A stretch of 14,486 bases of DNA from an uncultured Candidatus Saccharibacteria bacterium (GCA_964517185.1 CAZFBT010000013.1:1-14486); one strand, 5' to 3'; counted from the stretch's first letter, positions 417 to 11,926 are shown. The notes: generated from the letters alone by a model not told the origin. Numbers and translations: made by a program.

Positions 417-1520
417 ATGCCGGTTCTTTCTACGCTCCAGAAGGTCTTTCCGCCGCCACGCTACATGTCGTTCCCGTGCGTTGGCGTTGATATCTCTGAC
501 TCGTCGCTCAAGTATGTCTTGTTCGAGCGCGGTCGTGCGAAGCACGAGGGACTCTCTCTCAAGTCGTGGGGCGATATCGGCATTGATGTAGGAGTTGTCG
601 AGCGCGGCAAGGTGCATAACGTGAGCGCGCTCACTGAAGCGCTCAAGAGGGTCAAGGAGGAGACGAATGAAGAGTATGTTGCCGTATCGCTCCCCGAGGA
701 ACGAGCGTACCTCTTTGAAACATCACTCGGTGCCGATGTCCGCGTTAAAGAGATTCGCAGCACGCTCGAATTCAAGCTCGAGGAAAACGTTCCGCTCTCA
801 CCCCGCGACGCGTACTTCGATTACGACATCGTGAAGCGCGATCCGGTAACAGGTGAGGTGCGTGTCGCAGTCGCGGTCTATTCACGAGATACGATCAATG
901 CGTACTATGAAGCATGTACGGTTGCCGGACTCATGCCACTTTCGTTCGAAATCGAGGCTGCGGCAATTGCGCGTGCATCCGTTGAACGTGAACTCCGCGG
1001 GACATACCTCATCGTCGATTTTGGCAAGAGTCGGATGGGTGTGGGTATCGTACACAAAGGGATACTCATGTACACGTCGACCATTGAAATATCGGGACAC
1101 GACATGAGCAATGCGCTTCGCGCGGTCCTCGGAGATAGACCGGAAGCTGAGCTCACCGAGATAAAGAACACACGAGGGCTCATGCACTCGAAAGAAAATG
1201 AAGCGGTTGCGAACGTACTTGAGAGTCTCGTTGTAGCTATGGCAGATGAATTAAGTATCCGCATGCACTACTGGCACACTCGCGATGTTGACCGAGAAGA
1301 ACGAGAGATACAGAGGGTCATTCTTTGCGGCGGAAGCTCAAATCTTCATGGTCTTCCCGAGTTCCTTTCGGCAAAGCTTAGCATCCCTGTTGAACGTGCA
1401 CAGGTGTGGCAGAATGCTTTCTCACTCGATTCCTTCATTCCGCCCATCACACGCCGGTACTCATATGGGTACGCGACCGCGATTGGACTCGCGCTCCGAG
1501 AATTTACCAATGCCGTATGA
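417..1520 (+). CDS. pilM: type IV pilus assembly protein PilM (actin-like ATPase fold)
   Basis: 367-aa ORF. It carries GVDISDSSLKYV near the N-terminus, LIVDFGKSRMGVGI, and ILCGGSSNLHGLPEFLSAKLSIPVE, which are typical PilM/FtsA-like phosphate-binding and C-terminal motifs. It is followed by PilN-like and PilO-like genes with an ATGA stop/start overlap. An alternative start exists at Met17 (nt 465). Confidence 0.8.
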   Translation: MPVLSTLQKVFPPPRYMSFPCVGVDISDSSLKYVLFERGRAKHEGLSLKSWGDIGIDVGVVERGKVHNVSALTEALKRVKEETNEEYVAVSLPEERAYLFETSLGADVRVKEIRSTLEFKLEENVPLSPRDAYFDYDIVKRDPVTGEVRVAVAVYSRDTINAYYEACTVAGLMPLSFEIEAAAIARASVERELRGTYLIVDFGKSRMGVGIVHKGILMYTSTIEISGHDMSNALRAVLGDRPEAELTEIKNTRGLMHSKENEAVANVLESLVVAMADELSIRMHYWHTRDVDREEREIQRVILCGGSSNLHGLPEFLSAKLSIPVERAQVWQNAFSLDSFIPPITRRYSYGYATAIGLALREFTNAV

Positions 1521-2053
1521 TTAATCTCATTCCACCTGAGGGACACCGGGCGGTGAAGCGAGAGTACCTCCTCCGTATTGGGACCGTGTGGGCGATACTT
1601 TTTGCGGGGGTGTTCTTTGCGGGCGCGGCGCTCTCTATTCCGACATATGTGCTCGTGCGCATGCAACTCGAAAGCTTAACCTTGAGTGCCGACGAATCAG
1701 AGAGCACGAGTGCACAGTTCAAGCACGCCGAAGCAATCGTGCGTCGCACGAATGACATTGCACTTCAGCTGGACATCCCAATGAAGGGAGCATCTGCATC
1801 CGAGATTATCCGAGACGTTTCTCAGGTCGCGCCAAGAGGTGTCAGCATCACTTCGCTCCAGCTTGCGAAGAGCGCTGACACGTTCACGACCGTCCAGGTA
1901 CAAGGAATCGCTCCATCACGGAACGCCCTCGCGAGTTTCACCGATGCACTCAATGCACTCCCTCGGGTCGCACGCGCGGAGGTGCCTATTTCGGATCTCG
2001 CGCGTGACGTTGATCTGCCGTTTGCGCTTACCATTGAGCTCAAGATCGATTGA
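1517..2053 (+). CDS. pilN: type IV pilus assembly protein PilN-like (bitopic membrane protein)
   Basis: ATG 1517-1519 overlaps the pilM stop (ATGA at 1517-1520). The N-terminus MINLIPPE matches the PilN INLLP motif. It is followed by a basic stretch and one TM helix (IGTVWAILFAGVFFAGAALSIPTYVLV). The longer track ORF from 1406 overlaps pilM and is not needed. Confidence 0.75.
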   Translation: MINLIPPEGHRAVKREYLLRIGTVWAILFAGVFFAGAALSIPTYVLVRMQLESLTLSADESESTSAQFKHAEAIVRRTNDIALQLDIPMKGASASEIIRDVSQVAPRGVSITSLQLAKSADTFTTVQVQGIAPSRNALASFTDALNALPRVARAEVPISDLARDVDLPFALTIELKID

Positions 2054-2986: not shown

Positions 2987-3058
2987 GTCCCCATAGTTTA
3001 ATGGATAAAACTGCGGACTTCTAAGCCGTTGATCCAGGTTCGATTCCTGGTGGGGACA
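2987..3058 (+). tRNA. tRNA-Arg (anticodon TCT)
   Basis: Hand-folded cloverleaf. Acceptor GTCCCCA/TGGGGAC, D stem GTTT/AAAC, anticodon loop CTTCTAA (TCT at 34-36, T33, A37), T arm CCAGG-TTCGATT-CCTGG, discriminator A. The 31-39 position is an A/G mismatch. CCA is not encoded. Confidence 0.88.
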
Positions 3059-3509
3059 CCGAAATCAACAACCAGCACCAGCGAGTAGCTCATCACATAG
3101 GCACCTGGGAGTATCCATTGAAGCCGCTACAGCCTTTTCGAGTGAATGAATAGTACTCTCAACATATACGATGGTACCAGCAACAATTGCAAAAATTGAA
3201 CATACTTAGACATGTTTATTCAGGCGTACCTTATTTGTATAGGGAGCTAGAATTTCTCATTCTACAAACAAAATTGTAACAGGAGCTTAAATCTGGCTAA
3301 GGTAACAGCAAAGCGTGTCAACGACATGAATGTACTTCGTGAGCACAGGAGTACATCGGTAGCCTAAGCCTACGATACACGCGTGTTGGGTGTTTTTTGC
3401 CTATACACACAGGCCCAGCATTTTGTCTCATGACACGGTACAATTAATCAACGTAGACGTACATTAATATTCGACACAATTTCGCTTGATTCAAGACCAG
3501 CCTACCTAT

Positions 3510-10469: not shown

Positions 10470-10513
10470 CCGCGCGCCTTTACCATCAGGCAGAGGCGTG
10501 CGGTTTCGTTTTT
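10470..10513 (+). terminator. rho-independent terminator after rplS
   Basis: 10-bp stem CCGCGCGCCT / AGGCGTGCGG (one G-U) with a 14-nt loop, followed by TTTCGTTTTT. Confidence 0.7.
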
Positions 10514-10515
10514 CA

Positions 10516-10543
10516 TTGCAAAAATGCTAAAAATCCTTAGAAT
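10516..10543 (+). promoter_or_regulatory. sigma70-type promoter for tRNA-Leu
   Basis: TTGCAA (10516-10521), a 16-nt spacer, then TAGAAT (10538-10543). The tRNA starts at 10576. A 9-bp leader hairpin GTCACTCAA/TTGAGTGAC (10548-10573) lies in between. Confidence 0.5.
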
Positions 10544-10575
10544 GAGGGTCACTCAATTGTTATGTTGAGTGACTT

Positions 10576-10660
10576 GCCCAGGTGGCGAAACTTGGCAGAC
10601 GCACTACCTTGAGGTGGTAGCGCCCGTAAGGGCGTGCTGGTTCAAATCCAGTCCTGGGCA
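10576..10660 (+). tRNA. tRNA-Leu (anticodon GAG), class II with long variable arm
   Basis: Acceptor GCCCAGG/CCTGGGC. Anticodon arm CTACC-TTGAGGT-GGTAG. Variable arm CGCCC-GTAA-GGGCG. T arm GCTGG-TTCAAAT-CCAGT. Discriminator A. 85 nt. Confidence 0.93.
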
Positions 10661-10673
10661 CAAACGCGTCATG

Positions 10674-10698
10674 AAACCGAGACCTGCGTCTCGGTTTT
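10674..10698 (+). terminator. hairpin plus T-run after tRNA-Leu (A/T-flanked, potentially bidirectional); also the first hairpin of structured unit 1
   Basis: AAACCGAGAC-CTGC-GTCTCGGTTT followed by T. It starts 14 nt after the tRNA-Leu 3' end. Confidence 0.6.
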
Positions 10699-10702
10699 AG
10701 CG

Positions 10703-10759
10703 TTTGTGAGCCGGAGCCATGTTTTCGCTATACCTAATGCGAAAACGGGCGAGGCCGGG
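10703..10759. repeat. stem-loop module copy 1 (conserved flanks, covarying 8-bp stem, CCTAAT loop)
   Basis: TTTGTGAGCCGGAGC-c-AT-[GTTTTCGC]-tataCCTAAT-[GCGAAAAC]-gg-GCGAGGCCGGG. The paralogous copy is at 10950-11005. Confidence 0.85.
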
Positions 10760-10949
10760 TGAGACAGTCTGGGGGACTGTCGCAAGACTCATTGTGGATC
10801 TTTGCAAGTGAAGCGAAGCAAAGAGCCCAATGAGTGGACAGTGTCTGTAAGACGGGAAGTGCTTAGCGGTTTGGAGCAAAGCGAACAAACCACTTAGCAA
10901 CTTGACCCCAACCGCAAAAACGACCTGAACTGCTTCAGGCCGTTTCGCT

Positions 10950-11005
10950 TTTGTGAGCCGGAGCGATGTCGCAGCTGCTCCTAATGCTGCGACCGCGAGG
11001 CCGGG
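10950..11005. repeat. stem-loop module copy 2
   Basis: TTTGTGAGCCGGAGC-g-AT-[GTCGCAGC]-tgctCCTAAT-[GCTGCGAC]-c-GCGAGGCCGGG. The flanks are identical to copy 1. Four of the 8 stem pairs differ and all four are compensated. Confidence 0.85.
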
Positions 11006-11067
11006 CAGGAGGTTCTTAGCGAATGCAATGAGCTTAGAAACCTGACGCCCGTACATAAAATCCATTC

Positions 11068-11664
11068 CTACACCTCCTCCAAATATGCATTGAGGAAGGC
11101 GAGTTCGCGTTCGGTGATGAAGTGGCCCTGATAGATATTCGGCTTGTCTTTCTCGATGAGCTCAATGGCTTCGGTGGGATTCACCCAGACCGTCTGAAGT
11201 CCTTCAGCAATCTCGCTTTCGTCAAGCGCGGTCGGTCCTATCTCGCCCATGACCTCCGCGATGTACCCATACGATATCTGAATGAGGTCGTGGGCGTCGC
11301 GGTACTCGATGACGATGCCAAGGGGCTTCACAATGCGAATATCGCATCCGACCTCTTCACGCACCTCGCGGTGGAGCGCTTGTTCGAGCGTTTCGTCCTG
11401 TTCCATGCCGCCGCCGGGGAGCTTGTGGAAGAAGTGATTCGAAAGATACTGGAGCGCAATCGTGCCGTCGTCGCGGACAAGGACCGCTCGAGCGCTCTTT
11501 CTAAGTTTGTATGGTCGGTCCATCTTCTCGCTGAACCCCATGTTAAGAGAGCCGTCGCTAATTTCAGCGAGGAGTTTGAGCGCAGTCATATATTCCAGTA
11601 TATCAGAGCACGGTTCGGCTACTGTGTCTCGACAATAGCCTCCAAAACCGTTATAACTATGCAC
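11068..11664 (-). CDS. Nudix hydrolase
   Basis: A complete Nudix box is present: GGGMEQDETLEQALHREVREEVG (G-x5-E-x7-REVxEExG). The track start at 11664 is a GTG. In-frame ATGs at 11589, 11541 and 11523 would give 173-, 157- and 151-aa proteins, so the start is uncertain. Confidence 0.85.
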   Translation of the reverse strand: MHSYNGFGGYCRDTVAEPCSDILEYMTALKLLAEISDGSLNMGFSEKMDRPYKLRKSARAVLVRDDGTIALQYLSNHFFHKLPGGGMEQDETLEQALHREVREEVGCDIRIVKPLGIVIEYRDAHDLIQISYGYIAEVMGEIGPTALDESEIAEGLQTVWVNPTEAIELIEKDKPNIYQGHFITERELAFLNAYLEEV

Positions 11665-11798: not shown

Positions 11799-11871
11799 GG
11801 CGGCTATGGTGTAATGGTCAACACTGAGGTTTGTGGAGCCTTCGATCTGGGTTCGATTCCCAGTAGCCGCC
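11799..11871 (+). tRNA. tRNA-His (anticodon GTG) with encoded G-1
   Basis: G-1 at 11799 pairs with discriminator C73 (11871). Acceptor GCGGCTA/TAGCCGC. D arm GTGT-AATGGTCA-ACAC. Anticodon loop TTGTGGA (GTG at 11833-11835). T arm CTGGG-TTCGATT-CCCAG. CCA is not encoded. Confidence 0.93.
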
Positions 11872-11926
11872 CTAATGAATATTTAGCTAGAATGTCCCTG
11901 TATTGCAGGGATTTTCTAGTTCTAGC
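11868..11926 (+). repeat. boundary module L, copy 1 (tRNA-His trailer with extended terminator-like hairpin)
   Basis: CGCCCTAATGAATATTTAGCTAGAATGTCCCTGTATTGCAGGGATTTTCTAGTTCTAGC. It is 59/59 identical to 13011-13069. It contains the hairpin CTAGAA-tg-TCCCTG-tattg-CAGGGA-tt-TTCTAG (11887-11919), whose 3' arm lies in the T-rich run TTTTCT. Confidence 0.9.

Follow-up and report, generated by a model that had tools for sequence, protein, structure and literature searches.

CPR bacteria (Patescibacteria) have tiny genomes, and to our knowledge few mobile elements are known in them. IS200/IS605 elements use a Y1-HUH TnpA and move by single-strand 'peel and paste', their sites being read by a short internal guide (4 nt) beside a hairpin; they recognise a fixed target motif of 4-5 nt and leave no direct repeats. 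Integron attC sites are folded single-strand recombination sites in which structure, not sequence, is conserved and stem changes are compensated. In CTXphi, attP is a hairpin stem formed in the single-stranded genome (PMC6744903). Casposons use a tRNA gene's 3' end as insertion site, recognise the T-loop region within that target and are flanked by a 15-bp direct repeat (PMC5137440). Islands integrated in tRNA genes (tDNAs) are marked by the Islander signature, namely a regenerated target gene together with a displaced 3' fragment (PMC4383910).

We analysed a 14,486-nt stretch of DNA from an uncultured Candidatus Saccharibacteria bacterium (the window), in which a structured region lies between a tRNA-Leu gene and a convergent Nudix gene (11068-11664, minus strand). 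This region consists of two adjacent members, U1 and U2, of a previously undescribed family of non-coding elements. Its features are listed here, together with an empty site further along; R1 is the covariance model of the family, and labels such as L017 denote related loci.

10576-10661, plus strand: tRNA-Leu(GAG), whose 3' end is abutted by the elements and whose C10659-C10661 start helix P0 of U1 (ARAGORN; Rfam tRNA, 47.7 bits; fold)
10659-10708, plus strand: left module of U1, with P0 formed by 10659-10667 CACAAACGC and 10700-10708 GCGTTTGTG (fold); inside P0, an intrinsic-terminator-type hairpin (10674-10683/10688-10697, loop CTGC), then TTTT
10708-10759, plus strand: core arm A of U1, with P1a (10710-12/10753-55), internal loop GGA/GA, P1b and P2 (10721-28/10739-46, loop TATACCTAAT) (R1, 52.5 bits; covariation)
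10760-10853, plus strand: optional inserts of U1, a hairpin at 10760-10784 (ACAGTC-TGGGGG-ACTGT, also in the L008 copies), a nested hairpin at 10787-10835 and a small hairpin to ~10852 (fold)
10854-10909, plus strand: core arm B of U1, with P3 (GGG/CCC), P4 (U.U mismatch, bulged A), tandem G.A pairs, the apical motif GAGC-AAA-GCGA and the terminal CTTGACCCC (fold; weak separate R1 match at 10810-10911)
10697-11065, minus strand: 122-codon ORF antisense through both units, judged not to be a gene (self-match only; no Pfam)
10913-10955, plus strand: left module of U2, with P0 around a terminator-type hairpin (10921-10929/10934-10942, loop CTGC) (fold; comparison with L017)
10955-11051, plus strand: core of U2 in the canonical 97-nt two-arm form, arm A at 10955-11002 (P2 at 10968-75/10986-93) and arm B at 11003-11050 (R1, 105.4 bits, E 1e-21; alignments)
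11058-11069, plus strand: possible decayed, displaced T-loop and 3' end of tRNA-Leu, AAATCCATTCCT against AAATCCAGTCCT at 10644-10655 (weak; overlaps the Nudix stop region)
11800-11925, plus strand: tRNA-His followed by its own terminator, an empty site that is filled in L017, L051, L052 and L018 (alignment)

An earlier note, made from the sequence of the window alone, had described two related units here, at 10674-10759 and 10921-11005, and both are present. The 15-mer TTTGTGAGCCGGAGC occurs exactly twice in the window, at 10703 and 10950 (with up to three mismatches, 3 sites vs 0.36 expected), and GCGAGGCCGGG follows at 10749 and 10995. Each unit has a CTGC-loop hairpin (10674-10697 and 10921-10942) and an 8-bp stem, which reads GTTTTCGC/GCGAAAAC in U1 (10721-10728/10739-10746) and GTCGCAGC/GCTGCGAC in U2 (10968-10975/10986-10993). 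We could reproduce the covariation claimed for these stems: four pairs differ between the copies and all four changes are compensated, as is the change from C/G to G/C in the pair flanking the stem. The claim of high structure also holds (10662-11067, plus strand: -167 kcal/mol, z -6.4, 0/100 shuffles as good); the minus strand of the same interval folds with z -6.9 vs shuffles.

The unit size of ~85 nt, however, was too short, as the real unit adds a second arm ending in CTTGACCCC or CCTGACGCC, so that U1 extends over ~10662-10912 and U2 over ~10913-11051. Two parts of the region described as further helices are thereby reassigned. The 13-bp helix at 10861-10898 exists, but it is the second arm of U1 rather than a separate helix, and the helices at 10760-10852 are likewise present, not between the units but as optional inserts inside U1, of which ACAGTCTGGGGGACTGT recurs in other family members. 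An R1 search of the window with speed filters off found no further copies. Elsewhere in the window, a 425-nt gene-free stretch follows tRNA-Arg (3061-3485); it has no model match and is unremarkable in structure (z -1.0).

We count about 26 family copies, spread over 20 CPR loci, and members are ~140-250 nt long. A gapped pattern of the invariant blocks retrieved 5 loci from genome collections, 3 of them in one Candidatus Kaiserbacteria scaffold and 2 in contigs binned as Saccharibacteria. All sequences of the family are metagenomic, and the taxon labels of short contigs may err. A pattern scan of metagenomes gave 9 loci, and searches with R1 and by synteny added divergent copies in known and syntenic loci. 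The genes upstream of the copies are tRNA-Leu, Gly, Tyr, Phe, Trp and His as well as groEL and fusA. Among the 20 copies folded with their 5' flank, every one with an identifiable upstream gene is co-oriented with it.

The element matches no Rfam family: against Rfam 15, the window and 14 related loci gave only tRNAs above the gathering threshold, and over 10500-11200 at E <=10 only the tRNA and a 14.8-bit chance match appeared. Literature text searches by sequence words and by topic met no description of the family. Viral collections searched with two specific patterns held no copy, nor did phage and plasmid collections searched by BLAST. A looser pattern gave 31 matches in viral contigs, all in high-GC coding sequence and scoring 13-18 bits by the model, which we regard as chance matches. 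Within 8-12 kb around the copies we found no recombinase, transposase or reverse transcriptase, only housekeeping genes. A separate motif, GGTCAAAGGACTTGAAAAGG..., was seen behind tRNA-Leu terminators or family members in L050 (1300-1390, minus strand), L001 (285-330) and L016 (700-800, minus strand), finishing in L016 with CAGCAACTTGACGCC, which resembles arm B; the motif may represent a third subtype without arm A.

The core is ~95 nt long and has two arms. Arm A consists of P1a (GCC/GGC), the internal loop GGA/GA, P1b and a P2 of 8-9 bp with a ~10-nt loop; in arm B, P3 and an internal loop lead to P4, which has a conserved U.U mismatch and a bulged A, and beyond P4 a tandem G.A step precedes a short apical stem, often capped by a GNRA or 3-nt loop. 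In a MAFFT alignment of nine copies, which is independent of the model, 94.9% of cells are paired and 10 pairs have changed on both sides, a result equalled by 0/500 shuffles, while slid controls gave 16-48% paired. The larger set of 21 copies, whose alignment is fitted to the model, is 95.4% paired, with both-side changes in 24 of 26 pairs. The first 14 copies were found with a pattern that forces three conserved blocks to be invariant; the synteny-retrieved copies are free of this ascertainment bias, and they covary even in P1a (ACC/GGU, AUC/GGU, GAC/GUC). They do not keep the CCUAAU loop, which is hence not essential. U1 and U2 belong to this family and fold into its core structure. Inspected by eye, the core has no defining motif of a K-turn, a hammerhead, a hairpin ribozyme or group II domain V.

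Two C/A mismatches had earlier been taken as a hint of a minus-strand transcript, which is not borne out. In the family alignment, G.T outnumbers A.C on the plus strand (12 vs 3). The plus strand also has tandem sheared G.A pairs and GNRA-type loops, and the G.A pairs become C.U mismatches on the minus strand. Together with the co-orientation with upstream genes, this indicates that the folded strand is the plus strand.

The left module has a common plan in all 20 folded copies. H', the sequence directly 5' of the core, pairs with H, which is the upstream gene's end or the first bases of its trailer, and the resulting helix P0 surrounds a GC-rich hairpin and U-tract of the intrinsic-terminator form. 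The H/H' helix spans 8-29 bp in these copies, for example:

tRNA-Leu, tRNA-Gly and tRNA-Tyr copies: CACAAACGC / GCGTTTGTG
groEL copy: ATGGGAGG / CCTCCCAT
fusA copy: 18 bp
tRNA-His copy in L017: 29 bp

In the last of these, H' is the reverse complement of the entire segment from the T-loop to the 3' end, and the 191-nt stretch comprising the 29-bp helix and a 12-bp hairpin folds with -110 kcal/mol (z -11.9). Both H and H' are carried by the element, and H' matches the direct repeat. In L051 the tRNA-His allele CCCGG is found in both H' and the right repeat, whereas the resident gene has CTCTC; in L002 it is the new fusA end, not the displaced one, that H' matches. The targeting role of H' is not uniform, since in canonical tRNA copies only 2-3 bases of P0 are shared with the tRNA and L004 has no displaced fragment.

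The T-stem alleles of tRNA-His vary among close relatives (CTGGG/CCCAG, GAGAG/CTCTC and CCGGG/CCCGG; window 11800-11872, L017 1353-1424, L052 1575-1646), and inverted copies inside elements bear matching alleles. Element traffic may drive the replacement of the tRNA 3' half. The tRNA genes of the window (10576-10661 and 11800-11872) and of related loci do not encode a full CCA, but only C74.

Insertion is demonstrated by two pairs of empty and filled sites. At tRNA-His, which is empty in the window, the flanks in L017, both homologous to those of the window, are separated by a divergent member (163 nt) and a perfect 18-nt repeat; the repeat corresponds to tRNA-His positions 57-74 (T-loop to C74), and the Nudix genes of the two loci are ~70% identical. 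In L052 the same gene is followed by two copies, with the 18-nt repeat between them. At groEL, the empty site is L054, whose GroEL shares 97% identity with the one from L010 and whose gene ends in ...ATGGGAGGAGGAATGGGTGGGTATTAA, followed by its own terminator. The filled L010 has a 145-nt insert within the gene, 19 nt before the L054-type stop, bounded by the 8-nt repeat ATGGGAGG, with its complement CCTCCCAT abutting the core. The native end MGGGMGGY* is displaced downstream, and the element supplies MM* and a terminator, then CCTCCCAT and the core. The element thus brings a replacement gene end.

Displaced gene ends are significant in L012, L013 and L002 and decayed in L005 and L009; as tDNA fragments, they are a perfect 18 nt in L017 and L052 and 20 nt in L013. 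In the window, the candidate fragment at 11058-11069 is a weak match, as 94/300 shuffles scored equally well against the tRNA-Leu end. The left and right copies of the target differ in L010, L002 and L051, and H' matches the element-borne version; this means that the element brings its own gene end, and for the same reason we rejected a target-site duplication from a staggered cut as the sole mechanism. We also rejected a fixed TAM-like target motif, as none is common to the tRNA, groEL and fusA sites.

Several further observations concern these targets. L010 has a second, unrelated insert of ~90 nt (3043-3193) and then a second pseudo 3' end of groEL, which indicates that this gene end was struck at least twice by different small elements. 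Close relatives among the GroEL homologues (P0122-P0241) alternate at the C-terminus between tails in ...GGMM and ...GG(M)Y, a change that in L010 at least is due to the replacement end carried by the element. The contig of L001 starts with a tRNA-Leu 3' fragment alone (1-115, GTTCAAGTCCTCTCCTGGGCA), with non-tRNA sequence before it and a canonical element after it, and this may be a displaced fragment re-used as a target.

The tRNA-Leu site has a history of its own. The gene order rplS, tRNA-Leu, element, Nudix is kept in L016 and L017. L017 has a single copy directly after tRNA-Leu, with a P0 hairpin nearly identical to that of U2, so that U1 is located between an older copy and the tRNA. 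The one copy in L016 is a chimera, whose arm A is U1-like and whose arm B is identical to that of U2, and an arm-B remnant follows it; this shows recombination between the conserved blocks. The suggestion of a single ncRNA with an internal duplication therefore fails: U1 and U2 are separate members, and relatives carry one copy or a chimera here. Stacked copies also occur in L052 and L009. L050 has no model match behind tRNA-Leu, but a plain terminator and then a different motif. As the element is retained in relatives whose Nudix genes are only ~70-75% identical, it resembles a stable resident more than an active parasite. In L016, a 220-aa ORF with a faint LAGLIDADG match lies between rplS and tRNA-Leu (1102-1764, minus strand); it is absent from the window and L017 and may be a free-standing insertion resembling a homing endonuclease.

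How does this family compare with described systems? Its layout resembles the guide-defined sites of IS608. Like IS200/IS605 elements and PATEs, the copies are small, hairpin-rich, strand-specific and non-autonomous, with an internal sequence that pairs with the flanking target and without terminal inverted repeats. Their repeats of 8-18 nt and complement of 8-29 nt, however, set them apart from IS200/IS605, and no TnpA or TnpB lies within 8-12 kb around the copies. There is no fixed tetra- or pentanucleotide target lacking repeats as in PATEs; the bases to the left are GGTTC at tRNAs vs GGGC at groEL. The earlier candidate of a PATE/REP-like element therefore survives as a non-autonomous, hairpin-bearing mobile element, but not as a PATE or REP, given the lack of a target tetranucleotide, the long repeats and the absence of any IS200/IS605 partner among the loci seen. 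With attC sites the family shares structural conservation through compensated stem changes. The P0 strands, such as CACAAACGC/GCGTTTGTG and ATGGGAGG/CCTCCCAT, do not have the attC boxes R''-L''...L'-R' (RYYYAAC...GTTRRRY), and near the copies we found no intI, integron platform or cassette ORF. The insert ends are not inverted repeats as in MITEs (CATGATG.../...GACGTGT in L010, AAAATGC.../...CGTGACC in L017).

Like CTXphi-type IMEX (PMC6744903), the family has an inverted pair of target-like sequences at one end, in the layout target/loop/inverted target/body/target, and in 20/20 copies this pair (8-29 bp) folds as a duplex mimic of the site. The CTXphi enzyme acts in trans, as we infer for the family; the family, however, targets gene 3' ends rather than dif, lacks phage genes, and its hairpins mimic many unrelated sequences. 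Casposons are alike in the tRNA 3' end, the T-loop part of the target and the long direct repeat, but they are large, with terminal inverted repeats, Cas1 and a true target duplication (PMC5137440), whereas the two copies of the family's repeat can differ (L010, L002, L051).

A further parallel is with tDNA islands and their integrase-less, cis-mobilisable derivatives, in which the tRNA 3' end is split and restored by the element, a displaced fragment from the T-loop to the 3' end lies at the far edge, elements accrete in tandem at one tDNA, and conserved genes are the targets (PMC4383910). An intact tDNA with a co-oriented displaced fragment is found in L017, L052 and L013, in decayed form in L005 and L009, and only weakly in the window. 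The tRNA repeats of the family, from T-loop to 3' end, coincide with the identity block typical of tDNA integration. Islands carry an integrase and span 2-200 kb, whereas our inserts are 145-250 nt long with no ORF, and the members as a whole are 140-250 nt with no integrase and no gene. One family also has many targets, including sites inside groEL and fusA. Furthermore, the attachment sequence is accompanied by its own reverse complement as a hairpin, and the core is conserved by covariation.

Overall, we find it rather probable that these are small, non-coding, non-autonomous insertion elements of CPR bacteria (Patescibacteria) that target the extreme 3' ends of tRNA, groEL and fusA genes. 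On the target strand, a member would read, 5' to 3', H with a short trailer, the terminator, H', the two-arm core, a short target repeat and the displaced native end, and the GC-rich hairpin with its U-tract would restore transcription termination for the host gene. The active form would be a folded single strand, which could be ssDNA or RNA, with the target presented as a duplex copy by the H/H' hairpin. A trans-encoded enzyme may recognise the core and exchange strands within a short stretch of identity; as there is no enzyme gene nearby, the elements would have to be mobilised in trans. The layout target/trailer + terminator/inverted target/core/target is just what a folded single strand would leave on exchanging one strand with the chromosome while its hairpin stem mimics the chromosomal site, as known from phage CTXphi (PMC6744903); H' could act in this either as hairpin partner or as a guide proper. 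Repeated strikes at one gene end would stack copies in tandem, as at tRNA-Leu. Several points weigh against this proposal: the genes near the copies are housekeeping genes, the viral, phage and plasmid searches gave no copy, we know of no autonomous relative of the family and have seen no free or circular form, the tRNA-Leu copy resembles a stable resident, and one recombinase normally would not recognise so many different targets. A more far-reaching form of it, which we think possible but unlikely, is a minimal programmable, nucleic-acid-guided integration system: a Y-shaped scaffold (arms A and B) combined with a variable reverse complement of 8-29 nt of the target would let one element type, with one helper or host enzyme, enter the ends of many different essential genes while rebuilding each end and its terminator.

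The main alternative is a resident family of structured ncRNAs, such as sRNAs from a 3' trailer or 3' UTR, or the RNA of an RNP, with mobility being only how the gene spread; transcription would read through the terminator, P0 would be cut, for example by RNase III, and the released core RNA would bind a protein or another RNA. This would fit the strong covariation, the excess of G.U over A.C on the sense strand and the co-orientation with identifiable upstream genes, which are highly expressed ones. It would also fit the second terminator that usually follows the core and the conservation of the tRNA-Leu copy in diverged relatives. Tandem G.A pairs and GNRA or UUCG loops point the same way, although GNRA-type loops, tandem G.A and UUCG/GAAA loops are equally expected for functional RNA and folded DNA; the G.A motifs and loops of RNA type make a role of the core as RNA conceivable. 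However, a good intrinsic terminator stands between the promoter-bearing gene and the core, no promoter-like site was found within the element, and, as the terminator lies between H and H', P0 would rarely form in RNA. There is no Rfam relative, and the CCUAAU-type loops are lost in the synteny-retrieved copies. A resident ncRNA also gives no account of the templated H', in which 8 to 29 nt of the target recur as reverse complement, and on balance we consider this alternative unlikely.

It has little probability, in our view, that the element is a guide plus scaffold for a programmable recombinase or nuclease, with H' as the guide and the core as the protein-binding scaffold, as in omega RNAs, sgRNAs and IS110 bridge RNAs. 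The position of H' directly 5' of the core is suggestive, as is its complementarity to the repeat or target in the groEL, fusA and tRNA-His copies. A single core family occurs at 8 or more different targets, and H' tracks the T-stem alleles of tRNA-His (L017 vs L052). Yet the better fit of H' in L002 and L051 is to the copy on the element and not to the native target, target-specific H' is all but missing from canonical tRNA copies, no gene for a candidate effector was found nearby, and the terminator precedes H'.

Inert scars, left as attL/attR by deleted tyrosine-integrase islands or prophages (CIME-like) and without any structure-dependent function, are very improbable. A regenerated tDNA together with a displaced fragment (T-loop to 3' end) is what classically marks an island (PMC4383910), such sites accumulate tandem arrays, and attP regions measure ~250 bp (PMC4383910). 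Scars would not be expected to have compensatory change in 24/26 pairs, to show one core across unrelated targets and lineages, or to carry the reverse complement of the target.

The antisense ORF at 10697-11065 deserves mention, as it is called a hypothetical protein in two source records. The earlier note had placed the conservation of the region at the level of nucleic acid rather than protein, and we agree: among 5.8 billion proteins the only match of the ORF is itself, Pfam gives no match, and short plus-strand ORFs do not stay intact in the other copies. One of these starts from an ATG after GGAGC and opens ATGTGA in L002 and L003; another, of 8 codons after AGGAGG in arm B, is missing or out of frame in L002, L003, L011 and L013. 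As the variable residues of the 8-codon ORF follow the stem covariation, we rejected both. Stop codons interrupt every minus frame of the other family copies, and the 122-codon ORF is an accident of two stacked elements. That it is a real small protein gene downstream of Nudix is hardly credible, despite its GGAGGTG 5 nt before the ATG and its tight spacing after the Nudix stop, since it has no homologue or Pfam match, the syntenic L016 and L017 differ in sequence and length at its position, and the conserved blocks are read in different frames in U1 vs U2.

For the biology of CPR bacteria, the family means that an insertion inside an essential gene (groEL, tRNA) can be made harmless by a replacement end, a stop codon and a terminator packed into less than 250 nt with no gene of its own. 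It is also a recurrent source of spurious 'hypothetical protein' calls beside tRNA genes in metagenome-assembled CPR genomes. Each copy has the reverse complement of its own target beside a conserved structured core, which suggests that targets are chosen through base pairing or a hairpin mimic. If this is borne out, site-specific integration would have a new and very compact route, which would also explain the changeable GroEL C-termini and tRNA-His T-stem alleles among close relatives.
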